From a virus: a DNA stretch of 64,000 nucleotides. Both the position numbers and the translations under genes were made by a program. The notes beneath the pieces were generated by a model that saw nothing but the letters and a program-made list of their open reading frames with translations, was not told the origin of the DNA and searched no databases. Position 1 is the first letter of the stretch. The number at the start of each line of letters is the position of its first letter. The DNA lies in IMG/VR virus record IMGVR_UViG_3300037069_002364, positions 5,500 through 69,499 of that record, one strand, 5' to 3'. Of the stretch, positions 3,227 through 61,005 are shown in pieces.

Positions 3227-3262
3227 GCGTTGCTCCCTCTATGTACTTTTAGAAGAACACCA

Positions 3263-3556
3263 TCAGTCCCCGAGCATCTGGAAGGTGCCGCGCTCATTGA
3301 TGTGATCCGGCGCGTGGCGAAGACCCTCCAGGACGTGCACGGGGCGGCCAAAGGGATAGCGCGGCGTCATCGGGCGTGGCTTCTGCGCCAGCCGGTCGGC
3401 GATGGGCTGGATGAAGGCGAGGGAGGCGGCGACGGCATCGAGTTCTTCGGGCGCATCGAGTACGCGCTCATCATCGAGTATGGTCAATACGTCCTTGAGG
3501 ACGGCGATCAGTTCACGGCGGCGCTCGTTGCGGTGTTCGCCAACAGTCATACGCAT
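3263..3556 (-). CDS. Hypothetical protein
   Basis: Fits operon spacing between xis and the wHTH gene. Confidence 0.55.
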   Translation of the reverse strand: MRMTVGEHRNERRRELIAVLKDVLTILDDERVLDAPEELDAVAASLAFIQPIADRLAQKPRPMTPRYPFGRPVHVLEGLRHAPDHINERGTFQMLGD

Positions 3557-3888
3557 GATGCGACCCTCTTTCGTGTCTCGTGTGTGACCAGCCAGTGTTC
3601 CAGTGCCTCGCGGCGAATGAGGCGAATCTTCTCTCCCAGTGACACGCTCGGCAGTTCGCCACTGACGACGAAGCGCATCAGGAAACTGCGACTGACGCCG
3701 ATCAGCGCCGCCGCCTCGGTGACATTGAGGGCGATGCGGTTGTGCAGGGCTTCCGTTGACCGCGCCGCGTCGAGCAGTTCCGCCACCATCGTCTGCATAC
3801 GCCCCTCGGTGTACTCCACGAGTTCATTTGCCAGTCCGTCGAGGGCCGACGCGGGCTTGCCAACCGGGGTGATTCGTGCGATACTCAC
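3547..3888 (-). CDS. xis: Excisionase-like HTH_17 protein
   Basis: LNVTEAAALIGVSRSFLMRFVVSGELPSVSLGEKIRLIRREALEHWL; located next to cro/cI/int. Confidence 0.8.
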   Translation of the reverse strand: MSIARITPVGKPASALDGLANELVEYTEGRMQTMVAELLDAARSTEALHNRIALNVTEAAALIGVSRSFLMRFVVSGELPSVSLGEKIRLIRREALEHWLVTHETRKRVASCV

Positions 3889-3946
3889 GATATTCTCCTT
3901 TCCCTCTCGTTACCTGCGGGGATTACCCCTCCTCGCAGGCTGTCCA

Positions 3947-4213
3947 TCAGTCGGCAACGGCGGACATCACCTCCCTTCCACATGATTGATGATAGGCGGC
4001 GATCCGGTCGCGCGCCCGGGCTTGGAGCCAGGTGTGTAGATCATCGGGACACTGGTAATACGCGGCCAGTCGTTCGAGGAGGCGGAAGGTCGGCAGCATG
4101 ACGCCCCGTTCCGCTTTGGAGATACTGGAGTGGGGAATGTGTGATTCCCGTTCGACCTGATAGATCGAGCGAGAGGCGCGTGCCTCCCGCAGCAGTGCAC
4201 CAATCTCGGTCAC
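3947..4213 (-). CDS. Cro-like XRE HTH regulator
   Basis: IGALLREARASRSIYQVERESHIPHSSISKAERGVMLPTFRLLERLAAYY; divergent from the repressor. Confidence 0.85.
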   Translation of the reverse strand: MTEIGALLREARASRSIYQVERESHIPHSSISKAERGVMLPTFRLLERLAAYYQCPDDLHTWLQARARDRIAAYHQSCGREVMSAVAD

Positions 4214-4263
4214 GTTTTCCCCTTTCCTGTTCCCCCGATGCGTACTTATACAAGTACGTAACC

Positions 4264-4292
4264 ATCGTACAGGATGCCCCGAGGGGCGTCAA
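4264..4292 (-). promoter_or_regulatory. sigma70-type promoter for the cro-xis-rep operon
   Basis: TTGACG-N17-TACGAT on the minus strand; operator box at 4242-4257 just downstream. Confidence 0.7.
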
Positions 4293-4345
4293 GGGGGACG
4301 GGAAGTGGTATGCATACGGTCAACGATATTCGTCCCGCCACCCCC

Positions 4346-4374
4346 TAGTACGTTCCGAAAAAAGAACGTATACT
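4346..4374 (+). promoter_or_regulatory. Probable repressor promoter with an operator in its spacer
   Basis: TAGTAC-N17-TATACT; the spacer contains GTTCCG-AAAA-AAGAAC (4352-4367). Confidence 0.5.
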
Positions 4375-4434
4375 GACGCGTGACAGGAGCGACGCGAAGC
4401 CAGAATGGTTTCGGATGCGGAAGGTGTGACGGTC

Positions 4435-5199
4435 ATGACGAAAGGGATTCACCCACTGGCGCTCGGGACGATCCTCTTGGAGTTGCGCCGCAAGTACGAG
4501 GTTTCCAAGTATGCGATTGCCCACAGCACGGGCGGTATCCGCCCCCTCAATCACGGGCTGATCAGTCGCATCGAGTTGGGCGACTGCATTGCCCCGACGT
4601 ACGAGACCTTGCAGCGGATCATGGACGGCATGGATGCGGCGTCGCAGCGCGGCGCATTGGGGGCAGGAACGCGCAAGATGCTCTTTGAAACGGCCTTCGC
4701 CGACCGTATCACCTATGAGGCAGGGAAGTTTGCCGTCTATTACCTCTACCTGCTCGATGACACCGACGCGCCATTGCACCCGGCGCTCGAACGGCTGCGC
4801 GCCATGATGCTCGAAGAGTTCCCGTACATGGGAGAAGACAACCCCGACGCGCCACGCCCGATTCCCGGCACGGCACAGGGGAAGGGACGCACAGCGATTC
4901 GCGGCGTCCGTCACGAGCACGTCAACCTGCGCACCGCGACGGGATTCGAGGCGGTGCGGGTGATGGCGGAGACGCAGGAGGCCCACCACTTGCGTATGGG
5001 CCTGCTCGTGGATGTCGTGCCGTGGCTCACAATGGACTGGGAGGGGGAGCAACTTCGTTTGGGTCAAGGAGACCTTGTGCGCGCAACCATACGGAAATCC
5101 GGGGGCGACGTGTCAAGGGGGGCAGCGGCACCGAGCGATACGACCGATACCCGCATCGTGCAATTGTTTGCGGACCAAGAAGATGAACAGCCGCAATGA
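4435..5199 (+). CDS. CI-like XRE-family repressor, no recognisable intact S24 peptidase domain
   Basis: LGTILLELRRKYEVSKYAIAHSTGG...LISRIELGDCIAPTYETLQRIMDGM HTH; divergent from cro, upstream of int. Start 4435 preferred over 4405. Confidence 0.8.
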   Translation: MTKGIHPLALGTILLELRRKYEVSKYAIAHSTGGIRPLNHGLISRIELGDCIAPTYETLQRIMDGMDAASQRGALGAGTRKMLFETAFADRITYEAGKFAVYYLYLLDDTDAPLHPALERLRAMMLEEFPYMGEDNPDAPRPIPGTAQGKGRTAIRGVRHEHVNLRTATGFEAVRVMAETQEAHHLRMGLLVDVVPWLTMDWEGEQLRLGQGDLVRATIRKSGGDVSRGAAAPSDTTDTRIVQLFADQEDEQPQ

Positions 5200-5410
5200 C
5201 ACGCTTGGTCGTCTCGGTGTCCAGTTCGTCAAACGCATGTTCTAATCCCACGTCCCCATTTCCCTTCGTGCGAGAAAGCCACCGCAGGCTCTCACCCCAT
5301 CTCGCGTACTCTCGGATACACCACGCAGTATATATGGCGGAACAATTCTTGGCAATACCTTTATTATACAATCGGTGGGATTGTCGCAGGACAGGAGGCG
5401 CAGCAAGGCG

Positions 5411-6556
5411 ATGGGGACGATCAAGCGACATGAGGGGAAGCGGGGTGTCGTCTGGCGGGTACGGGAGGAGTTGCCGCGTGACCCGCTGACCGGAGCGCGC
5501 AAGTGGCAATGGGTGACGGGGCCGACGAAGCGGGCGGTGCAGGAGGAAGTGACGGCGATCCGCCACCGGATTGCCACCGGCACGCAGATCACGGCCAACC
5601 GCCTGACGCTCGGTGACTACCTCATCCAGTGGTTGCGCGCCAACCATGCAGATGTGCGTGGCTCGACATGGGAGCGCAACGAGCGCGATGTGCGCCTCCA
5701 CCTCATCCCGACGCTCGGCGCGCTGAAACTGGCCGATGTCACTCCCCTCCACATTCAGGCGCTCTACGACCGACTGAACACCCGGCTGGCCCCGGCCTCG
5801 GTGCGCCGCGTCCATGCCGTCCTCGCGGCCTCGCTCGATCAGGCGGTGGCGTGGCAGTTGATGCTCCGCAACCCGGCGAAGGGAGTCGTGCTGCCGCGTG
5901 ACGCCCACCGCGAGATGCAGGTCTGGGACGAGCGGGAGGTGGCGACCTTCCTCACGGCGACGCACGCCCATCCCTATGCCGCGCTCTGGCGGCTGGCAGT
6001 GCTCGTTGGCCTGCGCCGTGGCGAACTGCTCGCCCTCCAGTGGGACGATCTCGACACCGCACGCGCCACACTGACGGTGCGCCGCACGCTGACCGTGGAT
6101 GATCAGCGCCGCCTGATCGTCGGCACGCCCAAGACCCGCAAGGGGAGCCGCACGCTCACCCTGCCCGCGTCCTGCGTCACCGCGCTGCACGCCCACCGTC
6201 GCCAGCAGAATAGTGAGCGATTACGCATCGGCAGCGCATGGCAGGACAAGAACCTCGTCTTCCCGGCCAGTGACGGCGACCTCCTCTGGCCCTCGTATCC
6301 GGGCCACTGGCTCGACACCATCGCCAAGCACGCCAAACTCCCGCGTCTGCGCTTCCATGACCTGCGCCACACCGCCGCCACCCTCGCGCTCCTCCAGGGC
6401 ATCTCGCCCCGCGTCGTGCAGGAGCGGCTTGGTCACGCCTCGCTGGAGATGACGCTCGGACTCTACTCGCATGTCACCCTGACGATGCAGACGGATGCTG
6501 CGGCGAAGATGGACGCGATGTTCGCCGATCTACCGGCGCGTTTGACCTCCATGTGA
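5411..6556 (+). CDS. int: Tyrosine recombinase (phage integrase)
   Basis: GLRRGELLAL, KT, RFHDLRHTAAT, RLGH, YSH catalytic motifs; N-terminal arm-binding region. AGGAGG upstream of ATG 5411. Confidence 0.97.
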   Translation: MGTIKRHEGKRGVVWRVREELPRDPLTGARKWQWVTGPTKRAVQEEVTAIRHRIATGTQITANRLTLGDYLIQWLRANHADVRGSTWERNERDVRLHLIPTLGALKLADVTPLHIQALYDRLNTRLAPASVRRVHAVLAASLDQAVAWQLMLRNPAKGVVLPRDAHREMQVWDEREVATFLTATHAHPYAALWRLAVLVGLRRGELLALQWDDLDTARATLTVRRTLTVDDQRRLIVGTPKTRKGSRTLTLPASCVTALHAHRRQQNSERLRIGSAWQDKNLVFPASDGDLLWPSYPGHWLDTIAKHAKLPRLRFHDLRHTAATLALLQGISPRVVQERLGHASLEMTLGLYSHVTLTMQTDAAAKMDAMFADLPARLTSM

Positions 6557-6830
6557 TACCAATGTGAAAAATATGCCTCAATCCGTTTTCCATTTCTTGC
6601 CCCACAAGGGCAAATGGCCCGCTCTTCTGGCAACATGAATGCCACGGGCCGCTGCTTTTACCGCTCACAGCGGTCATTTTCGGCATTGTGAGCGTCATTG
6701 TACTTGTATTAGCACGTAATCGTCGGTGGTGGCGTGTGAGGGACGTGATACGATTTGTGATACGTGATGTGTTGAGCATTCTTTGGCTCTGGAGCCACGA
6801 GGAAAGGAACAATCATCATCGTGAGTAACA
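6553..6830. other. Probable attP region
   Basis: AT-richer non-coding gap after int; direct repeats GTGATAC at 6553, 6745 and 6757; inverted repeats CGCTCACA/TGTGAGCG (6662/6687) and TTGCCC/GGGCAA. Core sequence not identified. Confidence 0.55.
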
Positions 6831-6897
6831 TCGTCCCGGTGCCCGCACTTCCAGCAGCGCGTACCCTGCTCACCTCCGTCCACGCAGCACCGCCCGC

Positions 6898-7353
6898 TCA
6901 TGCGTCGTCCCCGTCGTCTGTCGCGGCGAGGGCGTCCATCCACTCATCGAACGCCGCCATCGGTACTGAGTGGGTGTGCCGCATCGCATCGTGCAGCGCC
7001 GCCCGCAGCACCCGCACGCGCTCCCGTTCGGCAGAGACGTCCCGATAGAGTCGCGCCCGCTCGCGGCGCAAATCTGCAATCTTCGGACTGTAAGAATACC
7101 GCGCGCATCGCTCATCGAGTTCCGCCCAAATTTGCTCGTTGGATGCGCGACGCAGCGGGTTAAGATCGAACATTTCGTCCAATTCCTCATTTGCTGCGCG
7201 TATCTCGGCGTTCTCTGTTTCGAGCACCTTCACCCGCTCCCGTTCGGCGGTGAGCGCGTCGCAGAGGGCGATGATCTGATGGCCCGTCAGTAGGGCATAG
7301 TTATCGCCCCACAGCCTCCCGGATGCCCGAATCGCCTCCACGTCTATCGTCAT
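6898..7353 (-). CDS. Hypothetical coiled-coil protein
   Basis: MTIDVEAIRAS..., internal repeat AERERVKVL/AERERVRVL. Confidence 0.65.
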   Translation of the reverse strand: MTIDVEAIRASGRLWGDNYALLTGHQIIALCDALTAERERVKVLETENAEIRAANEELDEMFDLNPLRRASNEQIWAELDERCARYSYSPKIADLRRERARLYRDVSAERERVRVLRAALHDAMRHTHSVPMAAFDEWMDALAATDDGDDA

Positions 7354-8003: not shown

Positions 8004-8017
8004 ACCCCGCCCCCTTC

Positions 8018-8227
8018 CTACATGCCCGCCCCATACTTGTTCGGCGCGGTCAGTCGGCGATGCGAGCGATACGTCGGATCGTACCGTTCGCGGTGAAACT
8101 CAATAATCTCGTCCATCATACGGCTCCGTGAGAGTTCGCGGTGTGTGCACTGGCGCACAACGTATTCGGCGTTCTCCGGCTTGAGCGTGTAACTTTTCGG
8201 TGGCTTGTTGCGTGGATGATCGGGCAT
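8018..8227 (-). CDS. Ribbon-helix-helix DNA-binding protein
   Basis: PKSYTLKPENAEYVVRQCTHRELSRSRMMDEII RHH pattern; operator box at 8248-8263 upstream. Confidence 0.6.
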   Translation of the reverse strand: MPDHPRNKPPKSYTLKPENAEYVVRQCTHRELSRSRMMDEIIEFHRERYDPTYRSHRRLTAPNKYGAGM

Positions 8228-8301
8228 GCACTCCCCTTTCCATCAATGTTCTTCTATAAGTACATATCACGAAAGGAGAAATTGCACAAGGGGTACGACC
8301 G

Positions 8302-8556: not shown

Positions 8557-8624
8557 CTACCACCGCCTCCTTCGTCGCATCGCCCGGAACAGATAATGAA
8601 ACGCCACGGCCCGCCAGAGCCACA

Positions 8625-10543: not shown

Positions 10544-10845
10544 TCGGTTGCCTCCATAATCTGTGCTGCTTTCAGGATGGTGACTGCGCCATTCGTGCGG
10601 CGCACCTTCGCCTCAACGGGTGACGAGGGATAGACGGCGATGATCTCCACGCGATCACGCCAGACGAGCGGCTTACCGGGGCGGGTGTCATCGGCGGCGT
10701 CGGCACCGAGCGTGGCGATGCGATTGCTGTTGCGCGCATAGAGGATGGCGAGGCGCATCGCACGCGCCTTCGCCAGCATGAGCATCGCCGCTTGATTCGG
10801 TCCCGTCATCCCCACATGCCATGCAAAGCGGGGTGGCAGGCTCAT
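10483..10845 (-). CDS. Hypothetical protein
   Basis: ORF track; start uncertain. Confidence 0.45.
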   Translation of the reverse strand: MSLPPRFAWHVGMTGPNQAAMLMLAKARAMRLAILYARNSNRIATLGADAADDTRPGKPLVWRDRVEIIAVYPSSPVEAKVRRTNGAVTILKAAQIMEATEWIPSSTTRVAPLTTPPHAD

Positions 10846-12852: not shown

Positions 12853-12881
12853 ATCGTATACGTTCTTGTATAAGTACGCAA
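12853..12881 (-). promoter_or_regulatory. sigma70-type promoter with an operator across its spacer
   Basis: TTGCGT-N17-TACGAT; box at 12862-12877. Confidence 0.7.
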
Positions 12882-20593: not shown

Positions 20594-20626
20594 ACCGCCC
20601 CCTTTGTCGTACGTTCTTTCATAAGT

Positions 20627-20655
20627 ACATTATCAGGCGCAGGAATCGCATGCAA
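20627..20655 (-). promoter_or_regulatory. sigma70-type promoter (extended -10) overlapped by operator
   Basis: TTGCAT-N17-TAATGT preceded by TG; box at 20613-20628. Confidence 0.65.
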
Positions 20656-23708: not shown

Positions 23709-23953
23709 GCTGGCACCCCTTCCGCGCACGGCATCGCCGCAATGTAGTTCGCGTGTATGTACGCTATCGGCCCCAGATCGATCATGCGCTCCCCGACACG
23801 CACCTCAAAGTCGAGGTCGGGTCGTTGCGCCTGCATGTGCATGCCGATCAGACAATCGGACGGCGAGCCGCAGACACCGACAATCGCATTGTCCGGTAGA
23901 CGCGATACGCGCTCGAATATCTCCTGCACAGTCGGGATCGTTGGCTCGTTCAC
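23705..23953 (-). CDS. Shortened member of the Cys-motif paralogue family
   Basis: IPTVQEIFERV...IVGVCGSPSDCLIGMHM...PDLDFEV; lacks the C-terminal LP..FD part. Confidence 0.6.
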   Translation of the reverse strand: MNEPTIPTVQEIFERVSRLPDNAIVGVCGSPSDCLIGMHMQAQRPDLDFEVRVGERMIDLGPIAYIHANYIAAMPCAEGVPA

Positions 23954-24054
23954 TTCGCCTCCTCCTTCGCTTTCTTCGCCTTCACCTGTAGTGCCCGCAG
24001 TTCCGCATCCACTTTGCGCAGATACGGCCAGACGGGTGTGCCGCCCTTCTTCAT
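23950..24054 (-). CDS. Small basic peptide, 34 aa; not in ORF track
   Basis: MKKGGTPVWPYLRKVDAELRALQVKAKKAKEEAK; GGAGG RBS; box at 24093-24108 upstream. Confidence 0.5.
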   Translation of the reverse strand: MKKGGTPVWPYLRKVDAELRALQVKAKKAKEEAK

Positions 24055-24096
24055 CACGATGCCTCCATTTCTGCGTGAGCGCCCCGGAGAGCGTTC

Positions 24097-24411
24097 TTAC
24101 ACAAGAACAGCACTCCGCACGCCTTTTGCGTAGCAACGCGCCTCGTGCGCGACCACAGCGCGTACCGCGTCCTCGATAGAGTCGAACCAGCCCCAGAAGC
24201 CACGCTCGGTGTCGTACGTGTTGTCGCCGCAGCAGACCTGCCCGTTATCGAGGAAGAGTTCAAAATCGTAGAAGCGATCAGGATTCCAGAGGCTTTTGGT
24301 GTAGAAGCGCACGGGTCGGCCCATGCTCGTCGGCACGGTATGGGGAATGCGCTGCATGCGAAAGCCGTCAACGACCGTCCATCCGGCATTGTTTTCCACC
24401 AGTTCGTACAT
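24097..24411 (-). CDS. Hypothetical protein
   Basis: ORF track; stop codon lies inside an operator box. Confidence 0.6.
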   Translation of the reverse strand: MYELVENNAGWTVVDGFRMQRIPHTVPTSMGRPVRFYTKSLWNPDRFYDFELFLDNGQVCCGDNTYDTERGFWGWFDSIEDAVRAVVAHEARCYAKGVRSAVLV

Positions 24412-26066: not shown

Positions 26067-26147
26067 CGCCCTGCTCCTTTCATCCTACGCCATCCATCTG
26101 TACTTACACAAGTACATGGCGTGGCGCTCTCTCGCGTGTGTGTGCGC

Positions 26148-26345
26148 GTCTGGTCTGGTCTGTGTCTGTTCTGTGTCTGTTCTGTATCTGTATCTGTTCT
26201 GGTGCGTTTCAGAAACGTTTCACCCGATTGTTCCCGAAACGTTTCAGTAACGTTCCATGAAACGGCATGAAACGTTACATCGTGTTACCGTAACGTTTCT
26301 GAAACGTTTCATCATCGTTTCAGAAACACGCATGAAACGGGCATG
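26148..26345. repeat. Non-coding second iteron-like block homologous to the rep-gene origin
   Basis: Exact shared strings with 1576-1624: TCTGTTCTGTATCTG, GTTTCAGAAACGTT, CTGAAACGTTTCATC. Confidence 0.8.
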
Positions 26346-27845: not shown

Positions 27846-27874
27846 AAGATAGCAAAAGTGCCGTTCTTTTACAA
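27846..27874 (-). promoter_or_regulatory. sigma70-type promoter heading the long leftward arm, overlapped by operator
   Basis: TTGTAA-N17-TATCTT with TGn extension; box at 27863-27878 covers the -35. Confidence 0.6.
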
Positions 27875-27986
27875 GTACGTCAAGTGGGGACAACTCCTAT
27901 GGCTGTGATAGACAAAACCTATCATCGCATGGGGATGCGGTAAAATGGAGGCATATTCAATGAAGATCAATTTCGATCAGTGAAAA

Positions 27987-28556
27987 TCAGCGGTTATTGA
28001 GGCCGAGGAGGGTATTGAAGGCACGATCATCAGCGAGTGCCTGCACCTCACTGCGGCGGATCACCCAGATGTCCTCAAAAGAGAGGCGGTGCAACCGCTT
28101 GTGGCGCTGACGGCACATATGCTCGATGCGTGTCCGACTGAGCGAGAGCATCTTCGCCGCCTCGGTGATCGTCACAAATCCCTCGTTGTGGGCACGCTCG
28201 ACCGTCTGGCGATACCCGGCACTGACGCCCCGCTTCTGAGTCATCGCGGCAAAGCGATCCACCTCACTACGGCGCACGCGCCAGTTCCGGTGACTGGGCG
28301 GCGTTTCCGGGGGATGGAAGGGGATGGCGACGAGCCTGCCCGAGCGGATCGCGTGGCGGATCGCATTCTCCGTCACGCCCCGGTAGGCAGCGGCCTCGGC
28401 CACCGTCCACAAGGGATCGGTGAGCGACGCCTCCTTGATCGCTTCCTGATCGGCCAGCCACCGCTCTTCTGCCCGCCGAATCGCCTCCACCACCGCCATA
28501 CGCGTATTCTGCACCGTTCGCTCCATTCTTGACACCCACACCATATCACTCAGCAT
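27987..28556 (-). CDS. Regulator with two excisionase-type (HTH_17) domains
   Basis: LWTVAEAAAYRGVTENAIRHAIRSGRL and FVTITEAAKMLSLSRTRIEHMCRQ. Confidence 0.8.
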   Translation of the reverse strand: MLSDMVWVSRMERTVQNTRMAVVEAIRRAEERWLADQEAIKEASLTDPLWTVAEAAAYRGVTENAIRHAIRSGRLVAIPFHPPETPPSHRNWRVRRSEVDRFAAMTQKRGVSAGYRQTVERAHNEGFVTITEAAKMLSLSRTRIEHMCRQRHKRLHRLSFEDIWVIRRSEVQALADDRAFNTLLGLNNR

Positions 28557-28583
28557 ACCCCATCCACGGCGCGTAACAAGGGG

Positions 28584-28964
28584 CTACCGATGATGGGCGG
28601 CGCGATGGTGATTGGGGCAGAGGGTGACGAGATTGGACGGGGCGTTCGTGCCGCCTCGGGAGCGTGGCACGATGTGGTGGACATCGAGCGATCCACCGCA
28701 GCCACACACCGTGCAGCGATGCCCGTCCCGTTCCAGCACCGCGCGCCGCATCCGGCGAAACTCATCCTCGTAGGACTTGCTCGTATAGTGGGCGCTCCCC
28801 GTACCGAGAATGGCCCGCTTGAATGCCCAGACGAAATAGCATGTGACTAGCGTCACCACGATGATCCAGAGGGCGATCCCGTAGGCGATCATCCCCCGGG
28901 AGGCAATCGCGTGACACGTCTTGTCCAATCCGTCGTTGAGGCACATCTGCTCCATCGGGTCCAT
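28584..28964 (-). CDS. HNH endonuclease with N-terminal transmembrane helix
   Basis: IAYGIALWIIVVTLVTCYFVWAF, then VLERDGHRCTVCG...VHHIVPRSRGGTNAPSNLVTLCPNHH. Confidence 0.85.
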   Translation of the reverse strand: MDPMEQMCLNDGLDKTCHAIASRGMIAYGIALWIIVVTLVTCYFVWAFKRAILGTGSAHYTSKSYEDEFRRMRRAVLERDGHRCTVCGCGGSLDVHHIVPRSRGGTNAPSNLVTLCPNHHRAAHHR

Positions 28965-29095
28965 CGCGCTTCTCCTTGTAAAACATCACAATTTCCCACA
29001 CCATCATACACGATGGTCGTACCGGGTCATAGGTTTTCTGCACGGATTTCCCTGACCAAAATCGTGAATCGCATGGGGATGCGCCAAACACCCGC

Positions 29096-29124
29096 TTGAC
29101 AACCGGGCGTTCCTTGTGTACTTT
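29096..29124 (+). promoter_or_regulatory. Probable late-operon promoter overlapped by operator
   Basis: TTGACA-N17-TACTTT; box at 29118-29133 covers the -10. Confidence 0.7.
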
Positions 29125-29148
29125 GATAAGTACGTAGGAGTATATCCA

Positions 29149-35956: not shown

Positions 35957-37795
35957 ATGCCAACGAAAGCCAAGGGCAAATATGCCGATGTGCCAGCGGA
36001 GGACTTCGCCGGTCCCCATCGGTCGTTTCCCATTGATTCGCCCGAGCACTTCAAGAGCGCCCTCCATCTCGTCGGCCACGCGGATGACCCGGCAGCGGTG
36101 CGTGCCCGGGCGATTGCCATTGCCAAGCGCAAGGGCTACCCGATGCCTGCGGGGGTCAAGGAATCCGACGCGCCCGCGACCGCCATGCGGGAGTCGGTCA
36201 GTCCGACGATGAACGACGGCGACGTGAAGAGCGCCATCCAGCGGGAGATGGACGCCGAGCACGAAGCGACGAAGCCGCGTAACGACTACAGCGGCCCGGG
36301 TCAGGTCGGGGACGTATACGATACGTTCTTCACCTTCACGAAGGGGTACGACAGCGGCTACGGTACGCCGAAGCACTTCGCACGCGGCTACAAGGTGGAC
36401 GGCACGCACAAGGCGACACTCGGCCCGCACTCGCGCCCCGTCGTCAAGAAGGCCGTCTACATGGATGTCGATCCCGACCATGACGGCGACAACGACCTGA
36501 CGAACCCGGATGAGAGTAAGGAGAGCGCCGCCTTCGATGGCGAGACGCCCCACACGCTCGTCTATCTCGCGGAAGCGGGCAGCCGCCACTCGCAAGACGA
36601 TAAGGCGCGTATCCAGTCGATCCACGACTCGGCGCACTCCATCGTCCATCACGCGGTCGAGATGCTTGGCCCCTCGACGCCGCCCGCCGATGCCTACGGG
36701 AGCGGCTTCCTGCCGATGATGCAGTCCACACGCGAGAGCGACTTGCCCCTCCTGGAGAGCGGCGAGGACGTAGCGATCACCGACATCGGGGTGATCACCT
36801 CCTTCACGGAATCGACGGGTGGCACCAATAAGGGCACCTTCGATATGACGATTATTCGTCCCGGCTTCAACACGAGCGGGAAACGGTACTACACGAAGGG
36901 AGCGATTACCGAAGCAGCCACAAAGAACCTCTTCACGGATCGGAAGATGTACATCGACCATCCGACCGTACGCGAGGAAAAGGAACTCCCCGAACGGAGT
37001 TTTTCCCGCATCGGGGCAGTGATCAAGGAGACGTATCTCGGTACGGAGGGGGAACTGCGGGGTCGGGCGGCAATCGTCAACCCGCAACTCAAAGAGACGC
37101 TGGCGCTCTACAAGGAACAGGGCGTGCTGCATCATGTCGGCGTCTCCATCAACGCCACCGGCACCGTGCGTGAGGGCGAAGTCGAAGGTCGCCAGACGCA
37201 CATTGTCGAGGGCTTTACCTCGGGAAAGAGCGTCGATTTCGTCACCGAGCCAGGTGCCGGTGGGCGAATCGGCCTCTACGAAAGTGATCGCGGGGACGCA
37301 CCCGTGATGGAAACCCATAAGGAGCCACCAGTGAACGAAGAGCAGGCCAAGCAGATTCTCGCGGAACTGGCAGAAGTCAAGGAGTCCAACGCGAAGTTGA
37401 GCGCCCAACTGACCGAGAGCGATAAGCGCGCCACGGACGCGGAAGCCCGCGCCGCAGTACAGGCGAAGGTCGCCACCCGCCTCGCAGCGGTCAGCGAGAC
37501 CGAACTGCCCGCGATTGCCAAGGAGCGGATTGCCCGCATGTTTGAGAGCGCGACGAACGCCGACCGCCTCGAAGAGGCCGTGACGAGCGAGATCGCCTAC
37601 ATCAAGAGTGCCGCCGAAGCGATTGCCCCGAAAGCGGCGGCGCGCGGTGGTGTGACGGGCCTCGGCTCGCGCGTCACGGAGGGCGCGCAGGACGTGATCG
37701 CCCCCTCGGAGAACAAGGAACTCGTGGAAGCGATGTCCTCGATGTTCGGTGGTGCGGAGAGCGCACGCGACCTGATCAAGCAGATGGTCGGCTAA
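35957..37795 (+). CDS. Prohead protease with N-terminal extra domain and C-terminal scaffold
   Basis: IIRPGFNTSGKRYY...MYIDHP...VGVSINA...SVDFVTEPGAGGRI, followed by a helical scaffold region. Confidence 0.85.
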   Translation: MPTKAKGKYADVPAEDFAGPHRSFPIDSPEHFKSALHLVGHADDPAAVRARAIAIAKRKGYPMPAGVKESDAPATAMRESVSPTMNDGDVKSAIQREMDAEHEATKPRNDYSGPGQVGDVYDTFFTFTKGYDSGYGTPKHFARGYKVDGTHKATLGPHSRPVVKKAVYMDVDPDHDGDNDLTNPDESKESAAFDGETPHTLVYLAEAGSRHSQDDKARIQSIHDSAHSIVHHAVEMLGPSTPPADAYGSGFLPMMQSTRESDLPLLESGEDVAITDIGVITSFTESTGGTNKGTFDMTIIRPGFNTSGKRYYTKGAITEAATKNLFTDRKMYIDHPTVREEKELPERSFSRIGAVIKETYLGTEGELRGRAAIVNPQLKETLALYKEQGVLHHVGVSINATGTVREGEVEGRQTHIVEGFTSGKSVDFVTEPGAGGRIGLYESDRGDAPVMETHKEPPVNEEQAKQILAELAEVKESNAKLSAQLTESDKRATDAEARAAVQAKVATRLAAVSETELPAIAKERIARMFESATNADRLEEAVTSEIAYIKSAAEAIAPKAAARGGVTGLGSRVTEGAQDVIAPSENKELVEAMSSMFGGAESARDLIKQMVG

Positions 37796-37845
37796 CCACG
37801 ACCCGAACTGTACTTATATAAGTACGCAGTTGAAAGGAACCTCTA

Positions 37846-38211
37846 GTGGCCCTCAACGAGCAGCAACAGCCCGGTAATGTCTTTGTGGCGACGCTGGCGG
37901 GTATTGCCAGTGGCGCACCGGCGAACGTCGGCCAGTTCACGGGCGTTGCCCCGGTGGGCAGCGTGACGATTGACGGCGTGGCGAACCAGTGCGTGATCGA
38001 CATGTCGCACAAATATTGGAATCTCTCGGTCAAGGGCGTCACGAACGGCGCGGTCAGTGCCGCCGTTGCGGTGGGCGACCAACTCTACATCAATCTCGCG
38101 CACACTCCGGCGATTGACAAGGACACGACGGGCGTCCCCTTCGGCATCGCCGCAGGCGCGGTTGCCTCCGGTGCGACGACGACGATCTCCGTCCGCCACG
38201 GCGCGATTTAG
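37846..38211 (+). CDS. DUF2190-like head decoration protein
   Basis: AVAVGDQLYIN...GVPFGIAAGAVASGATTTISVR; precedes the capsid gene. Confidence 0.75.
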   Translation: MALNEQQQPGNVFVATLAGIASGAPANVGQFTGVAPVGSVTIDGVANQCVIDMSHKYWNLSVKGVTNGAVSAAVAVGDQLYINLAHTPAIDKDTTGVPFGIAAGAVASGATTTISVRHGAI

Positions 38212-54077: not shown

Positions 54078-56570
54078 ATGGCACAACTTTCGCTCGTCCT
54101 CTGCGATCTGGCGGGCAATGCACTGCCGCAGGAATGGGCGATTGAAGATGTCCTTTCCGCGACGGTGATGATGGAGGAACTGGATCGCTTCTCGCCGCAC
54201 AGTGTGACGACCAGTGCCAGTTTCCGCCGCAACCTCGCCCTCCTCAGTGGCCTCGCCACCGTGAAGATCATCGACGCCGACGTGGGCGTGGTCGCCTGGG
54301 GGATCATCGACAACCCGCAGGAGCAGATCACGCGTGCCGATGCGCACACGATCACCCTCTCCCTGCCGAACATCACCGAGGCATTGCGCTACTCGACCAC
54401 CGGACAAGGGTGGGCGGCGGGATCGAACGCGCAGCCGCTCGCCTTGCAAACCATCGTTCAGCGCCTCGGCGCATTGCATTATGGCTGGTCGGCCCACTGC
54501 CTCGACTACGGCAGTGACCCCTTCATCCTCGCCTATGACGACGCGACGGTACTGGGCGCACTGACCGAGACAGCGGCGGCGACCTTCGGGCATATCCGGC
54601 AGGGACGGGACACGAGCGGCGCACCGAATCAGACGATGGAACTCCTCCAGAACAGCGCCGCGCCGACCTTGCAACTGATCTCCCCTGATGGCGGCAATGC
54701 GAACGATATTGTCAACAGCAATCCGTACGCGCGTCTCGTGGACTCGATTACGCGCAACCCCGCCGACTGCACGAAACTCGTCAACGCGATGACACCCATC
54801 GGCGGTGGGTCGGGGTCGAGTCAGGTGCGATTCCGCCGCCTCTTCAAAATCCTCCACGATCCCGCGTACGAGCATTTCGGGCAGGCGGCGTACTTTCCTG
54901 AGTACGACCCAAACTTCCCGCTGCCCGCGCTCTATAACGCGGCAGCAGGTATCTGGCAACCCGCCCGCCTGATGAAGGGTGACAGCACGCAGTGGGAAGT
55001 GGCGGCGCGACTCGATGGCGGCGCGGACGGCTACGAGTACCACATCGTCAATCTGGCGTCCCTCGCCACCTATAACGCGCGCTTCCCGCATGAGGGGGAG
55101 TTCCGCAGCCAGTTCTCGGACAGCACCTTCTCCTACACGACTGACGCGACGGACATCACCTCGCAGGAGCAGACGGAACGCGCCCTCTATGTCGCGGCGA
55201 AGGCGCAACTCCAGTGGTACGGCTTCCCGCAGCGCACCGTCACGGTGACGACGGTCGGCAGTGGCCGTCCACCCCGCGCGGGCGATCAGGTGACACTCGG
55301 CTACCGGCGCATTGGCGTGGACGAGCAGGGGCCGTTCAGCGAGATGGACGAGAACGGCACCTATACCATTGTCGCAGTGCAGCGCACGTATGATACGAGC
55401 GGCGTGGCGACCGATACGTGGACACTGACGAACAATGGCAAGCAGCCACCGGACGCGGCGAGCAGGGGGATTGACGGGACACGCAAACTGATCGAGGCGA
55501 TACGCTCAGTACCGACGACGGTGAGCGCGCCCTATCAGATCGCGAGCGGCGTCTGGGACATCGACGCCATTCATCCCCTGACGAACTACTGGGAGATTCC
55601 CACCCAGTCCTTCCGGGTGCAATCGGCAAAGATCAGAATCAACCTCTTCCCCTCGCGTGCCAATGTCAGGGTCACGGATGCGCCGCCGCTGGCGGTGAGT
55701 GTGCCGATCCCGGCGCTCAACGTCGTCAGTTTCGGCCTGCCGCTGCATTCACATAGCTCGCCGATCCCGCTGCACGCGCACGGCGGCATCCACAGTACAC
55801 TCGGCACGAGCGGGACCACCGACATCAGCCACGGGCAAGGGACGAGCGTGCCCGCGTCAAAGAGCGGCACGTCGGACAACGCGAACAACGTCGCCGGGGT
55901 GGACACGCACGGTCATTACATCCCTGTTTTCGGCGGATTGACGAACCCGAATGCCGACCAGGATTTGTGGTTCAAGGGTGACTCGCAGGTACTGGCGATG
56001 AAGGCGGGCGGGAACTATCGCGGTCCAGCGACCGGTTCGCAGACGCTCAACTCGAATCACGCTCACGCCGACACGATTGGCGTGGGCGGCGGCGGCACGG
56101 TAAACAACCTCGGACCGACCGGCAAGGGACTGGGGAGCGGCGCAACGCCCATCGGCTTTGACACGAGCAACTACAGCGTACTCACCTCCACCTATGCCGA
56201 CAACGGCGGAACAGTGCTTGGGGTCACAACGCAGGGCACCACGACCGGGACAACGGCGACGCACTCCCACAATCTCCTGCCGGGCATCTTCGAGACCAAC
56301 CTGCCGATGCGCGTCGGCCTCTACATTGACGCCGGGGACGGCAACCTCGTTGACCGCAGCCCCGAACTGGGCGGCCCGTGGACGGCGACGATGACCGCCT
56401 CCGTGGACATCAGCAAATATCTCGTGGCAACGAAGGGCGGCCAGGTTGTGCGCTTCCAAGTCGTCGCGCTGACCGATGCAAACAATCCAACGGGCCTCGG
56501 ACGTGCCGAGGTGTCAGGTGTGGGCGTCTTGGAGATGTCGAGTGCTTCGGCAACCTTCTTCGCCGCGTAA
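54078..56570 (+). CDS. Baseplate hub / Tal-like minor tail protein with HxH-rich C-terminal region
   Basis: RAGDQVTL...YTIVAVQRTY hub-type end, then multiple HxH motifs. Confidence 0.65.
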   Translation: MAQLSLVLCDLAGNALPQEWAIEDVLSATVMMEELDRFSPHSVTTSASFRRNLALLSGLATVKIIDADVGVVAWGIIDNPQEQITRADAHTITLSLPNITEALRYSTTGQGWAAGSNAQPLALQTIVQRLGALHYGWSAHCLDYGSDPFILAYDDATVLGALTETAAATFGHIRQGRDTSGAPNQTMELLQNSAAPTLQLISPDGGNANDIVNSNPYARLVDSITRNPADCTKLVNAMTPIGGGSGSSQVRFRRLFKILHDPAYEHFGQAAYFPEYDPNFPLPALYNAAAGIWQPARLMKGDSTQWEVAARLDGGADGYEYHIVNLASLATYNARFPHEGEFRSQFSDSTFSYTTDATDITSQEQTERALYVAAKAQLQWYGFPQRTVTVTTVGSGRPPRAGDQVTLGYRRIGVDEQGPFSEMDENGTYTIVAVQRTYDTSGVATDTWTLTNNGKQPPDAASRGIDGTRKLIEAIRSVPTTVSAPYQIASGVWDIDAIHPLTNYWEIPTQSFRVQSAKIRINLFPSRANVRVTDAPPLAVSVPIPALNVVSFGLPLHSHSSPIPLHAHGGIHSTLGTSGTTDISHGQGTSVPASKSGTSDNANNVAGVDTHGHYIPVFGGLTNPNADQDLWFKGDSQVLAMKAGGNYRGPATGSQTLNSNHAHADTIGVGGGGTVNNLGPTGKGLGSGATPIGFDTSNYSVLTSTYADNGGTVLGVTTQGTTTGTTATHSHNLLPGIFETNLPMRVGLYIDAGDGNLVDRSPELGGPWTATMTASVDISKYLVATKGGQVVRFQVVALTDANNPTGLGRAEVSGVGVLEMSSASATFFAA

Positions 56571-56581
56571 AGGGGGAAACA

Positions 56582-56914
56582 GTGTTGAGTGACAAGATTC
56601 GTCGGATGCTGGATCAGGGACGCCCGACGACGGCGCTCGTTGATGATGTCAACGAGGCGCGGGAGATCGTGCAGCGGTCGATACTGCTCGATCCGCTGGA
56701 CGGCAAGAAGCGCGTCCTGATCACGGTGGGCGCTGACGGCAACTTCGAGCCGGTGGCGTGGTTCGGCCTGACACACGGATTGGTGGAAGCATCGAATATC
56801 GCCGCGCATGGCGCGCTCATTCTCACCGAGTGCGTCTGGCAGGAGAGCGTCACGGCGGCGGAAGCGGAAGCAAGCCGACAGTCAGCGGCGCGGGCGGCAT
56901 CGCATGGCGAGTAA
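56582..56914 (+). CDS. Hypothetical protein
   Basis: GTG start with AAAGGGG RBS. Confidence 0.55.
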   Translation: MLSDKIRRMLDQGRPTTALVDDVNEAREIVQRSILLDPLDGKKRVLITVGADGNFEPVAWFGLTHGLVEASNIAAHGALILTECVWQESVTAAEAEASRQSAARAASHGE

Positions 56915-57263
56915 TCCACGCGCCCTCGTCGCGCGCCTGGTCACGCATTTCGTCGGTGAAGCGGCGGTCGTGCCCTATGCGCCACGGGCACTGAAACGGC
57001 CCGAACCGATGACAGCGGTGGACTTCCTGCACGATGAGGCGCACCTGCCGTTCGAGTTCGTCTGCGACGTGATGGGCAAGCAGCGCGACCTCCCCTCCAA
57101 CTCCGGCACGATCAGTCTCAGTGATCCGACCGTCAACGGCAAGACCTTCTCCGTAGGTCACAACACGATCACCCTCAACCGCCTGCCAATGGCGATGTAC
57201 CGCCTGATTCCCGAGGAGGCGGTGGTACGCGTGACGATTGAGGTACTAACCGGGGGCGCGTAA
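56904..57263 (+). CDS. Hypothetical protein
   Basis: MASNPRALVARLV...; overlaps neighbours. Confidence 0.55.
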   Translation: MASNPRALVARLVTHFVGEAAVVPYAPRALKRPEPMTAVDFLHDEAHLPFEFVCDVMGKQRDLPSNSGTISLSDPTVNGKTFSVGHNTITLNRLPMAMYRLIPEEAVVRVTIEVLTGGA

Positions 57264-57685
57264 TGCAACAACGACAACAACAGGAATGCTCACCCTCGCT
57301 CCGGCAGCGGGTGACGCGCGTCATTGACCAGTGGGAGACGAGCCTAACCTTCTTCTGTCTGGTCTTTGGCTTCTTCATCGGTTGGGTACTGGTCATCCAG
57401 CCCTTCCATCATCTCCTCCCCCCGGACAGTCCGTACCTCTCCTTCGGCACCGTGGGCATGGTCGTCGTCGGCGCGGCATACATCCTCGCCACGACCTACA
57501 GCGCGCTCTACCCGGAGCGGCACGGTGCCTATGCCGCCATCTCCCTGATCGCGGGCACGGGCCTCTATGCGGGCCTGCGGGCGCACGACATCGTGGCGAC
57601 CGGCTTCTGGACACTCGCCTTGATCACCGTTTCGGTCGGTGTCGCGCGCCTCTTACGTGCGCTCTATCGAGGAGCGCGCCAATGA
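57263..57685 (+). CDS. Membrane protein (about 4 TM), lysis module
   Basis: Four hydrophobic segments. Confidence 0.65.
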   Translation: MQQRQQQECSPSLRQRVTRVIDQWETSLTFFCLVFGFFIGWVLVIQPFHHLLPPDSPYLSFGTVGMVVVGAAYILATTYSALYPERHGAYAAISLIAGTGLYAGLRAHDIVATGFWTLALITVSVGVARLLRALYRGARQ

Positions 57686-58089
57686 TCGCCGTCGTCACCA
57701 GCACACCGGGGGGCGTCATCGGGACCATCGCGCTCATCCTCTCGCTCCTCGGCGTGGGCGAGATCGTCCGCGTCTACGTCGGACGGGCAGCGGGACGCTA
57801 TCGCGAACGGCGCGTGGACCGACGCGAAGAGAATGCCGACGACCGCGCCGAACTGGAAAGTTGGCGCAGCAACAGCAATCAGTGGCAGGGGCAAGTGATG
57901 ACGCTCCAGGGCGAATTAGTCAAACGGGATACACGGATCGCCCAGTTGGAGCGGGATGTCAGCGACCTCCGCGAGGAGATGCGCACCCTCCACGGCGAGA
58001 TGACCGACATCCTCAGAGAGAACCGGCGCTACCGCATCCTCCTCGAAGCACGGGCCGACAATGGCATCGACACCGGAAAGGCGGACTGA
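57682..58089 (+). CDS. N-terminal TM plus coiled-coil protein (holin-like/lysis accessory)
   Basis: GVIGTIALILSLLGVGEIV, then heptad-rich region. Confidence 0.65.
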   Translation: MIAVVTSTPGGVIGTIALILSLLGVGEIVRVYVGRAAGRYRERRVDRREENADDRAELESWRSNSNQWQGQVMTLQGELVKRDTRIAQLERDVSDLREEMRTLHGEMTDILRENRRYRILLEARADNGIDTGKAD

Positions 58090-58090
58090 C

Positions 58091-58240
58091 ATGGACCTCC
58101 TGATCATCCTGATCGTGCTTTTGCTGATCCTGTGGGTCTTCGGACTGGCGACGGCGATTGGTGGGTCGCTGATCCATCTGCTCCTCGTCGTCGTGGTGAT
58201 CGTCCTGATCATTCGCCTCCTGCAAGGGCGGGGGGTGTAG
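58091..58240 (+). CDS. Lmo0937-family small membrane protein, 49 aa; not in ORF track
   Basis: MDLLIILIVLLLILWVFGLATAIGGSLIHLLLVVVVIVLIIRLLQGRGV. Confidence 0.75.
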   Translation: MDLLIILIVLLLILWVFGLATAIGGSLIHLLLVVVVIVLIIRLLQGRGV

Positions 58241-58241
58241 C

Positions 58242-58652
58242 GTGCCGTACCACCGTCACTACATCCATCAGCCACACTCCGTGGGTGAGCGCGCGGCGGA
58301 TCGGGTCGCCACCGCGATGGGGTCGTGGCGCTTCATCATCATTCAGACCGTTTTCGTCGCCCTCTGGATGGCCTGTAATGTCGTCGGCTTCGTCCACCAT
58401 TGGGATATTTTCCCGTTTATCCTCCTCAACCTCCTGTTTAGCACGCAGGCCGCATACGCCGCGCCGATCATCATGATGTCGCAGAACCGGCAGGCCGCGA
58501 AGGATCGACTCCGTGACGACCATGAGGCGGGCGAGGTGTCGCAGATTCTCGCCATCCTCGATCTCGTCCATACCCTGTCCGTCAATCAGATGGCGATCTT
58601 GCAGGAGATGGTGCTGGCACGGCAGGAGCGCGACCGGGCGACCGAGGTATGA
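58242..58652 (+). CDS. DUF1003 family membrane protein
   Basis: ADRVATAMGSWRFIIIQ...DIFPFILLNLLFSTQAAYAAPIIMMSQNRQAAKDR. Confidence 0.9.
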   Translation: MPYHRHYIHQPHSVGERAADRVATAMGSWRFIIIQTVFVALWMACNVVGFVHHWDIFPFILLNLLFSTQAAYAAPIIMMSQNRQAAKDRLRDDHEAGEVSQILAILDLVHTLSVNQMAILQEMVLARQERDRATEV

Positions 58653-58909
58653 GCGCGCCTCTCGCGGTCGTGATCCTCCTCGCCCTCTGGCTCCTCGTCT
58701 ACGTCTCCCGACCACAGCGCCCCGAGGGGCTGAATGAGACGGCGTGGCGCGTCTACGTGCACCTCCAGGGGTCGTGGGAGCGGCTGCGCCTGACCGCGCT
58801 CCTCCTCACGATGTTCGCGTTCTTCCTGATGATCGGCCTCTTCATGCAGGCCGCGTCCCCGCACGCTCCGCACTGCACCGAGCACCAGAGCGCCACCGTT
58901 GACTGTTAG
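58649..58909 (+). CDS. Small 2-TM membrane protein
   Basis: Two hydrophobic helices; directly before endolysin. Confidence 0.6.
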   Translation: MSAPLAVVILLALWLLVYVSRPQRPEGLNETAWRVYVHLQGSWERLRLTALLLTMFAFFLMIGLFMQAASPHAPHCTEHQSATVDC

Positions 58910-58926
58910 TAGTGAGGGAGGGAATC

Positions 58927-60945
58927 ATGCCGAAGAATATCCTCGGCCTCCATGCGCCCGTACAGGGAGCCACGGACGCCTTCAAGCAGTGCCGCGCCAA
59001 CATCGGTGCGTCCTGCGTGTTGTTTACTGCCGCCTGCGGCCCGCAAGACGCGACGGATGGGGTGACGAACCTCGTGCGCCTGCCGTCCCCGCAGCAGGGC
59101 GAGAGCAGCGACGGCTACATTGCCCGCACCCACGATCAGATCGCCCGCTGGTACGCATCGGGTATTGCGGCGCTCTTCATTCCCGGTAACGAACCCGACC
59201 TCGCCGAATCCAGTGGCGATGTACCCACGGCGTATACACAGGCCGCGTGGGAAGCGCAGATGGAGGCCGTGGTGTCTGCGTTACGGAGTGTATGGGGTGG
59301 CATCGTCCTCGCCGCGCCCGCGTATAGCGTCGGTAACATGTCATGGTACACCCCGCGCTACGCGGGACTCTTTGATAGTGTCACCGCACACGCCTACTGG
59401 TGGGCAGACAAAGACGAGATGCACGACACCGCCGCAGGCGCGGCATGGCAGTACGCGACCCCCTTCGGGAAGCCGGTCTACATCACCGAGGCGAACAGCA
59501 ACCCAACGACGCCCGACCAACTGGCGGCATGGGCGGCGGGACTACCGGAGATCGTCAAGGGGGTCTGTTTCTATATCACCGACGATCAGGGGCATGACCC
59601 CCAGTACAACATCACCCCCGCGCAGGCAGCGGCGATCCGGCAGGCATACGACGCGCCCGTGGTTGTCCCTGATCCCGTGCCGACGCCGGAGCCATTGCCG
59701 ACACCACCGCCCGCGCCCACGGGAGGGTACAGCGGCGACAGCGATCCGCGCGGCTTCCGTGCCCTCGATGGTCGCTGGCTTCCGTATCTCACCGCCCACA
59801 ACGCGAGCGAAGCGGCAGCGATCTGCGCGACCTACCATGATGCCTGCCAGACGATTGGCTATGACGCCAACCTTGCCATCGCGCAGGGGTGTGTGGAGAC
59901 GGCCACCTTCACCTCCGCGCGGTGGCAGAACGCGCACGCGGCGGCAGGGGTCGGCATCTACAGTGACGGCACCCCGGACATCATCTGGGGCGAGAGTGAC
60001 GCGACGCCGCACGGCACCGTTGAAGCGGGTATTCGCGCGCAGTGCGAACTCCTCTCCGACTACTACTGTGGCGGCACGGAACCGTGGGGCATTCTCAAGC
60101 CGCATCACTTCGGCGGCATGAACCTCGGCAAGACGAAACTCTCCGACATGGATGGCGTCTGGGCGGCGGATACGCAGTACTCTGCCACGATCAGCGCGCT
60201 TGCAAACGGCGTCCTCGGTGACACCGTGCCCGCACCGACGCCGCCGCCCATCCCTGATCCGGCACCCGCACCGCTCGGGCCGATCACCCTCGCGGACATC
60301 CTGCGGGTCGCAACGGCGCACATCGGCAACACGAAGACCGATGAGGGGCAGCCGGAGTACGAGTGGTGCGAACAGGAAGTCGAGGAGTGGCTGGCGGAGG
60401 CGGGATTGGCCCGCGTGCGCTATCCCTCGGCGGCGGTACATGGCGACGCGGTGGCCGCAGCGGGCCTCTTCCATATGGAGATGCCGCCACCGCCCGGAGC
60501 CGTCCTGATTGGTGGGCGGGCTTTCGATCCAAACGGCCACATCTTCGTCGCGGACACCTACCCGTTCGTGATTACGACCTACCCCGGCACGGTGAGCCGC
60601 ATTGATGCGGTGGCGAATGGTTGGTATGCGTCGGCGGGACTCTTGGGCTGGTACATCCCCGCAGGCGTTCGCACAGAGGAGGACGACATGGCACTCCCCA
60701 TCGAAGGGAAAGCGGACGACGGGTTGTACGAGTATGCGTTCCAACGCTCGGGGCAGGCGCTCAACAAAGAGAGCGGTATCTATACGCGCTGGCTCGGCAT
60801 GGTGAAGGCGGGCGTACCGATTGGTATTCCGACCTCACCCGAATTCTCTTTTCCCGATGGCCGCACCTGCCAGACCTTCTCCTCGGGCGCGGTGATGACC
60901 GCCGTCAAGCAGGAGGACGGCACCTTCCACGTCTATGTGAACTAA
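58927..60945 (+). CDS. Multidomain endolysin: TIM-barrel glycoside hydrolase + glucosaminidase-like + CHAP/NlpC-like + LGFP-like binding repeat
   Basis: GNEPD...AHAYW...KPVYITE; AIAQGCVET...GVWAADTQY; EWCEQEV...GHIFV; IYTRW...IGIPTSPE...QTFSSG; Pro-rich linkers between domains. Confidence 0.8.
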   Translation: MPKNILGLHAPVQGATDAFKQCRANIGASCVLFTAACGPQDATDGVTNLVRLPSPQQGESSDGYIARTHDQIARWYASGIAALFIPGNEPDLAESSGDVPTAYTQAAWEAQMEAVVSALRSVWGGIVLAAPAYSVGNMSWYTPRYAGLFDSVTAHAYWWADKDEMHDTAAGAAWQYATPFGKPVYITEANSNPTTPDQLAAWAAGLPEIVKGVCFYITDDQGHDPQYNITPAQAAAIRQAYDAPVVVPDPVPTPEPLPTPPPAPTGGYSGDSDPRGFRALDGRWLPYLTAHNASEAAAICATYHDACQTIGYDANLAIAQGCVETATFTSARWQNAHAAAGVGIYSDGTPDIIWGESDATPHGTVEAGIRAQCELLSDYYCGGTEPWGILKPHHFGGMNLGKTKLSDMDGVWAADTQYSATISALANGVLGDTVPAPTPPPIPDPAPAPLGPITLADILRVATAHIGNTKTDEGQPEYEWCEQEVEEWLAEAGLARVRYPSAAVHGDAVAAAGLFHMEMPPPPGAVLIGGRAFDPNGHIFVADTYPFVITTYPGTVSRIDAVANGWYASAGLLGWYIPAGVRTEEDDMALPIEGKADDGLYEYAFQRSGQALNKESGIYTRWLGMVKAGVPIGIPTSPEFSFPDGRTCQTFSSGAVMTAVKQEDGTFHVYVN

Positions 60946-61005
60946 TCTGTACTTGTATAAGACCGTAGTGGTAGACAACCGTACCTGTATACGAACGGAG
61001 GCACC

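Follow-up and report, generated by a model that had tools for sequence, protein, structure and literature searches.

A dispersed palindrome in a temperate siphovirus-like genome as candidate operator of a CI/Cro-type module

The locus and its repeated palindrome

The 64,000-nucleotide window analysed here covers bases 5500-69499 of the 71,590-bp IMG/VR record IMGVR_UViG_3300037069_002364, in which a 16-bp palindrome, GTWCTT-N4-AAGWAC (W being A or T; hereafter the box), recurs ahead of genes. Positions are those of the window unless the genome is stated. The record is a temperate siphovirus-like genome with a GC content of 62%. A tyrosine integrase gene lies beside a divergent pair of genes for a CI-like and a Cro-like protein; a long leftward early arm extends to ~26100, and a rightward late arm carries the terminase, portal, capsid, tail, holin and lysis genes (Table 1). 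No tRNA and no Rfam family were found in the record.

Ten exact copies of the box are present in the window, all of them where an earlier note on this sequence had placed them, and the near copies that it named (4352, 6700, 60949, 60981 and the intragenic 23327) were recovered within two mismatches. About 0.004 exact copies are expected; the note's figure of ~0.003, which assumed ~65% GC, is of the same order of magnitude. Across 100 dinucleotide-preserving shuffles of the window there was no exact match at all. When up to two mismatches are allowed, 23 matches are found against 1.65 expected, and these include an intragenic copy at 54890 that was absent from the earlier list. The motif check on the full record proposed there placed GTACTT-N4 as the top over-represented palindromic dyad, and uncovered an eleventh exact copy and a further intergenic near copy outside the window (Table 1). 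Avoidance of GTAC was not seen in the sequence (observed/expected 0.88), and a literature search for the word itself gave primer matches only.

Thirteen sites aligned toward the downstream gene yield the refined consensus GTACTTnTAnAAGTAC, followed by G-n-A, in which either half may be GTTCTT. In this orientation spacer position 2 is T in 12/13 sites and position 3 is A in 10/13, while on the plus strand six of the 11 exact copies have TA at the centre of the spacer. Every good copy is intergenic with a start codon 9-53 nt downstream; among the 13 aligned sites the box ends 9-36 nt before the start codon, immediately 5' of the Shine-Dalgarno sequence. Altogether, boxes stand at approximately 16 gene starts.

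Which base a W position carries in one half is independent of the other half, and in 6 of the 11 exact sites the two are non-complementary. Moreover, RNA folding gives zero energy for 8 of the 13 sites and only -3.2 to -4.0 kcal/mol for the remaining ones. Because the halves vary independently and eight sites have no RNA fold, the box is better understood as a DNA site than as an RNA stem, as had been argued earlier from the mixing of half-sites. The half-site centres are 10 bp apart, which is one helical turn and the geometry of a helix-turn-helix dimer. Judged from these properties of the sequence, the box is a stretch of double-stranded DNA that a dimeric protein probably recognises; from its symmetry, and from half-sites spaced by 10 bp, we infer that the repressor would bind as a dimer.

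Table 1. Boxes, associated promoters and genes of the module (window coordinates; distances are to the start codon of the downstream gene)
Feature	Position	Strand	Description
Box	genome 474 (window -5025)		Exact; outside the window; contains the -35 (TTGTAT) of a promoter
Box	genome 5386 (window -114)		1 mismatch; outside the window; intergenic, start codon 53 nt downstream
Box	3243..3258		Exact; in the 36-nt gap between cro-operon genes 3263-3556 and 2972-3226; 16 nt before ATG
Cro-like protein	3947..4213	-	88 aa; HTH_31/HTH_3; divergent from cI
Box	4242..4257		Perfect candidate operator GTACTTATACAAGTAC; about +1..+16 of the leftward cro promoter
cro promoter (Pcro)	4292-4264	-	-35 TTGACG 4292-4287; -10 TACGAT 4269-4264
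cI promoter (PcI)	4346-4374	+	TAGTAC 4346-4351; TATACT 4369-4374
Box	4352..4367		2 mismatches; degenerate candidate operator GTTCCGAAAAAAGAAC; fills the 17-nt spacer of the rightward cI promoter
CI-like repressor candidate	4435..5199	+	Alternative start 4405; N-terminal XRE-type helix-turn-helix; C-terminal domain without Pfam match
Tyrosine integrase	5375-6556		
Box	6700..6715		2 mismatches; convergent gap after the integrase gene; adjoins terminator-like hairpin ACCGCT-CAC-AGCGGT
Box	8248..8263		Exact; ATG of minus-strand gene 8018-8227 is 20 nt away
Box	12862..12877		Exact; fills the spacer of minus-strand TTGCGT(12881-12876)-17-TACGAT(12858-12853); 21 nt before ATG 12840
Box	20613..20628		Exact; abuts the -10 of minus-strand TTGCAT-17-TAATGT (20655-20627); 19 nt before ATG 20593
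Box	23327		1 mismatch; intragenic
Box	24093..24108		Exact; 35 nt upstream of 35-aa minus-strand open reading frame 23950-24057
Box	26100..26115		Exact; contains the -35 TTGTGT of minus-strand TTGTGT-18-TAGGAT (26111-26082); heads the long leftward early gene array (ATG 26066)
Box	27863..27878		Exact; contains the -35 TTGTAA of minus-strand TTGTAA-17-TATCTT (27874-27846)
HTH_17/HNH cassette	27987-28964		
Box	29118..29133		Exact; covers the -10 of the late promoter (rightward), TTGACA(29096)-17-TACTTT(29119-29124); first late gene begins 15 nt further on (ATG 29149)
Box	37810..37825		Exact; perfect palindrome GTACTTATATAAGTAC; 50-nt gap between genes 35957-37795 and 37846-38211, the latter with a weak cement-protein match and preceding the capsid gene
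Box	54890		1 mismatch; intragenic
Box pair	60949..60996		Two imperfect copies, 60949-60964 (1 mismatch) and 60981-60996 (2 mismatches), 32 bp centre to centre; fills the 60-nt gap before holin gene 61006-61410

Overlap of the box with promoters

By sequence analysis, the conserved box overlaps core elements of seven promoters, among them Pcro and the late promoter. A loose sigma70 rule (TTGnnn, 16-18 nt, TAnnnT), applied to both strands of the full genome, found 21 matches, and 10 of these touch seven box sites where ~0.3 would be expected. Under a strict scan only Pcro (TTGACG-17-TACGAT) passes near a box. The position of the box relative to the -35 and -10 elements shifts by ~35 nt among sites; since its placement ranges from the -35 to +1, the box appears to be operator-like and not a fixed promoter element. 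A search for a phage-encoded sigma factor found none.

The earlier note had assigned promoters to six boxes, and five of these fit the loose rule while that at 4346-4374 does not, its -35 (TAGTAC) being weak. Its more general statement, that boxes overlap or abut sigma70-type promoters, holds for seven sites, including two that we add, 26082-26111 and the match outside the window. Conversely, of the sites listed there as having no visible promoter, 3243, 24093, 37810 and 60949/60981 are likewise without a loose-rule match in our scan, whereas 26100 has one; we also detected none at 8248. Three of these locations (3243, 37810 and 60949/60981) fall in 36-60-nt gaps within co-directional gene arrays. 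As no promoter was detected at 37810, this copy is a candidate roadblock.

The CI-like and Cro-like proteins and their relatives

The CI-like protein has no Pfam or PHROG match and no S24 peptidase domain was found in it, while its Atlas neighbours are all HTH_31/HTH_3 (XRE-type) proteins. A word-indexed search for homologues of this protein returned none, and phmmer, run exhaustively against 1.84 billion representatives, recovered just two homologue clusters, with 46% and 56% identity. The C-terminal ~170 aa are conserved in these two clusters only, and the N-H-x-x-I of the recognition helix is invariant in all three proteins. The family (4435-5199; P0087, P0088) therefore amounts to three clusters in all among those representatives. 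Cro-based scans of viral and metagenome collections had no matches. Between the phage's own CI-like and Cro-like proteins, similarity is confined to the recognition helix. No additional DNA-binding family emerged when 54 proteins, the majority from the early arm, were scanned against Pfam.

Relatives of the phage are few. Megablast against phages found no close relative, and portal scans of viral, genome and metagenome contig collections gave nothing; one distant viral match was obtained. The best cultured terminase match has 27% identity. The closest portal (76% identity) occurs in two Thermomicrobia metagenome-assembled genomes (GCA_020200375.1 and GCA_020200735.1), and the public runs that hold the phage are all soil DNA metagenomes. 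The host is likely a soil Thermomicrobia bacterium.

The most informative relative is L170, a 4.9-kb contig from the same Thermomicrobia metagenome-assembled genome as the 76%-identical portal. It carries the first CI cluster and is the one CI homologue with neighbouring DNA. L170 has the same divergent cro/cI arrangement, with 54% identity for Cro (1502-1774 in L170) and 46% for CI; despite this overall divergence the helix-turn-helix helices are nearly invariant, helix 2-3 of Cro reading RSIYQVE.E..I.HS.ISKAERG. In its cro-cI intergenic region an exact box GTTCTTCTACAAGTAC stands 21 nt before cro, and a degenerate box GTTCTTGCCCTTGTAC at 1901 overlaps the -35 of the cI promoter TTGTAC-17-TATAGT. 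When the two intergenic regions are aligned, the conserved blocks correspond to the box, both hexamers of Pcro (-35 and -10) and the -10 of PcI. A further relative, L007 (portal 72% identical), has an orthologous late promoter TTGACA-N17-TACCTT with a one-mismatch box GTACCTTTGTAAGTACGTA, and another one-mismatch box on the opposite side of its HTH_17/HNH cassette. The box, which the earlier note had proposed to look for in related phages, is thus present in both relatives.

Several hallmarks of a CI/Cro switch are found at this locus. A divergent pair of helix-turn-helix repressor genes lies beside the integration module, and shared palindromic sites overlap both divergent promoters, a configuration kept in L170. 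The copy at 4352 is probably a low-affinity autoregulatory site. A RecA-stimulated S24 autocleavage domain, also typical of such switches, was not recognised in the CI-like protein.

Other features near the boxes

The region around the 6700 copy (6640-6720) is where attP would be expected, and no tRNA fragment was found in it. The lysine-rich product of open reading frame 23950-24057 (minus strand, 35 aa, MMKKGGTPVWPYLRK...) is preceded by a good Shine-Dalgarno sequence, and this is the sole candidate gene downstream of the 24093 box. Between 26116 and 27860 there are ~1.7 kb without a convincing coding frame on either strand, into which the promoter 27874-27846 points; the stretch holds a strong terminator-like hairpin (26484-26451, 15-bp stem), has no Rfam match, and might encode a long non-coding RNA or serve as an origin region. 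Iteron dyads of the GAAACGTTTC type occur at 26206-26317 in this non-coding stretch, just upstream of the 26100 box, and also at 1595-1700, inside the replisome-organiser-like gene 1210-2052.

A second palindrome, ATCGCATGGGGATGCG, is found at 27924-27939 and 29068-29083, flanking the tandem-HTH_17/HNH cassette. The latter copy lies 13 nt upstream of the late -35 and is partly conserved in L007 (ATCGCATTGGGAAGCC); an activator of the late promoter may bind there. In the whole record (G000), AGCT (5 observed versus 128 expected), CTAG (11 versus 60) and TTAA (3 versus 16) are strongly depleted, which suggests pressure from host restriction systems.

Candidate binders of the box

We consider it likely, with a probability of roughly 0.7, that the boxes are dispersed operators of the phage's own XRE-type CI/Cro module and act by promoter occlusion. 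A dimer of the CI-like repressor would bind the consensus, each 6-bp half-site being contacted by one helix-turn-helix, and the Cro-like protein probably binds it too. In a lysogen, CI dimers would occupy the boxes and exclude RNA polymerase from the cro operon, four other leftward units (one just outside the window), the 27863 promoter and the late operon. The weak site at PcI would provide negative autoregulation, and Cro would act at the same sites in lytic growth. The two proteins, already named as candidates in the earlier note, seem to be the best-supported binders, as the homologous pair of L170 has the box at the same positions. At the promoter-less sites before the capsid-region and holin genes we infer roadblock action; the boxes at 3243, 37810 and 60949/60981 may halt read-through into capsid and lysis genes, or may instead aid cooperative looping.

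A number of observations weigh against assigning the boxes to this module. Several sites have no detectable promoter. The CI-like protein has no recognisable S24 or other inducer-sensing domain, and its structure model (pLDDT, the predicted local distance difference test score, of 42) is too poor for use. The comparison with L007 covers the late promoter and the HTH_17/HNH cassette and not its cI region. Because the relatives keep the motif unchanged, there is no covariation of operator and recognition helix that would single out CI/Cro over a host factor. Finally, the word is not unique to this immunity module. Among the matches listed in an IMG/VR scan for GTACTTNTANAAGTAC, at least ~150 are single chance copies in AT-rich contigs, and one contig, L108 (IMGVR_UViG_3300025286_000413; 12 kb, 55% GC), has six exact copies between 1351 and 5557. 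These are located 6-29 nt before small minus-strand genes, just 5' of the Shine-Dalgarno sequence and all in one orientation, reading mostly GTACTTGTAGAAGTAC in the direction of the gene, with an additional one-mismatch copy at 10779. L108 occurs in marine metagenomes, shows no similarity to the phage in either DNA or protein, and contains no recognised DNA-binding or helix-turn-helix domain. Convergence is the simplest account, since habitat and gene content differ, and we rejected L108 as evidence of a shared host factor on the grounds of its marine origin, its GC content and the lack of similarity.

A host-encoded global regulator, such as an SOS or other stress repressor of the Thermomicrobia host, could own the box on all phage units, and the use of host LexA by the Bacillus phage GIL01 offers a precedent. 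Such a regulator would account for the motif remaining unchanged in three relatives while the regulatory proteins diverged to 40-54% identity, as well as for a CI without a recognisable cleavage domain. The GTWC half-sites also resemble words (GAAC/GTTC and GTAC) found in the LexA boxes of Gram-positive bacteria and cyanobacteria, but their arrangement differs: known LexA consensus sites read GAAC-N4-GTTC (Cheo) or AGTAC-N4-GTWCT (cyanobacterial), whereas the box is GTWC-N8-GWAC, so that the half-sites are everted (GTTC-N8-GAAC). It also speaks for a host regulator that no LexA motif has been defined for Sphaerobacteraceae or Chloroflexi (PMC3323433). However, the layout is that of a textbook CI/Cro switch, with a strong Pcro site and a weak PcI site conserved along with the module, the helix-turn-helix helices of both proteins are kept while the remainder diverges, and 16 near-perfect sites per 72 kb are more typical of a dedicated phage repressor. 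We therefore regard a host regulator as unlikely.

Another phage protein might bind the box alone, namely Cro as a lytic shut-off protein, the 84-aa product of 2972-3226 with its weak winged-helix similarity, or one of the HTH_17 proteins (3547-3888 and 27987-28556). The helix-turn-helix of Cro is indeed the best-conserved element, yet for silencing late and lysis genes a repressor acting in lysogeny is a better fit than a protein of the early lytic phase. The 3243 box has gene 2972-3226 immediately downstream, and the HTH_20/MarR matches of its product are weak and below the Pfam cut-offs. Boxes flank the tandem HTH_17 gene in this phage as in L007, but its cassette is also flanked by the distinct palindrome ATCGCATGGGGATGCG and the protein is only 40% conserved. 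Binding by one of these proteins alone seems quite improbable to us.

The location of the sites 9-53 nt ahead of start codons, their slight asymmetry with respect to the gene (G at +16, A at +18, and a preference for CTTG) and the uniform orientation of the six L108 copies just 5' of the Shine-Dalgarno sequence could alternatively point to a promoter element that a modified or alternative holoenzyme of RNA polymerase would use, or to a 5'-leader RNA hairpin in processing or translation. Both halves of the palindrome are conserved, however, and the changes between W and W are non-compensatory. We rejected the hairpin and the dedicated promoter element on folding, the independence of the W positions, the variable placement relative to the -35 and -10, and the lack of an encoded sigma factor, and consider a role of this kind very improbable.

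Relation to known repressor networks

Genome-wide operator networks are already known from other phages, and the present one introduces no new principle. In Cluster A mycobacteriophages, the repressors of L5 (gp71), Bxb1 and TipsytheTRex act on genome-wide stoperators and operators (PMC9283540, PMC6550527). The comparison with stoperators made in the earlier note, including the contrast between a palindrome and an asymmetric 13-mer, was apt. As in Cluster A, there are many sites for what would be one repressor, including late-operon gaps and the early lytic promoter, in keeping with a logic of whole-genome silencing; promoter-distant sites in co-directional operons are likewise found genome-wide (3243, 37810 and 60949/60981). 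Cluster A sites, on the other hand, are asymmetric 13-mers bound by a monomeric two-domain repressor and oriented with transcription, and the block of elongation is a Cluster A feature. The box has both palindrome halves conserved over 16 bp, which implies a dimeric XRE-type helix-turn-helix protein, and there is a Cro partner in addition.

The c repressor of the Streptomyces phage phiC31 binds dispersed conserved inverted repeats, palindromes of ~17 bp at more than 12 intergenic positions. phiC31 is a temperate siphovirus and, as in the present genome, its palindromic intergenic sites lie in part on promoters and in part elsewhere. The two phages differ in the sequence of the sites and in their unrelated repressor families, and while most phiC31 sites cluster in the early region, the box is also found on the late promoter and in the capsid-region and holin leaders.

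The early region resembles the switches of 434 and P22, in whose CI/Cro pairs the two proteins are likewise similar only over the recognition helix. The common features are divergent helix-turn-helix repressor genes by the integrase, shared palindromic operators, similar recognition helices, and a strong operator on the lytic promoter with a weak one on the repressor promoter. Here, however, one strong and one weak site take the place of the tripartite right operator, and the CI is without an S24 autocleavage domain. Unlike lambda-type switches, this genome would have ~14 more operators, including those at late and lysis genes.

Implications for phages of Thermomicrobia

To our knowledge, little is known about gene regulation in phages of Chloroflexota. 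We suggest tentatively, and with more doubt than confidence, that a dimeric XRE-type repressor puts one symmetric operator to two uses, occluding at least seven promoters and serving as a 'symmetric stoperator' at the promoter-less capsid-region and holin gaps. If true, it would be the first time that a lysogeny circuit is described for a phage of Thermomicrobia (Chloroflexota), and whole-genome roadblock silencing would have arisen independently of the monomeric Cluster A repressors. The network adds one case to the temperate phages that spread one operator genome-wide. It also provides a testable regulatory map, consisting of an operator, a repressor pair and seven promoters including the late one, for a lineage without a cultured relative, and the operator/repressor pair may serve as an orthogonal switch.

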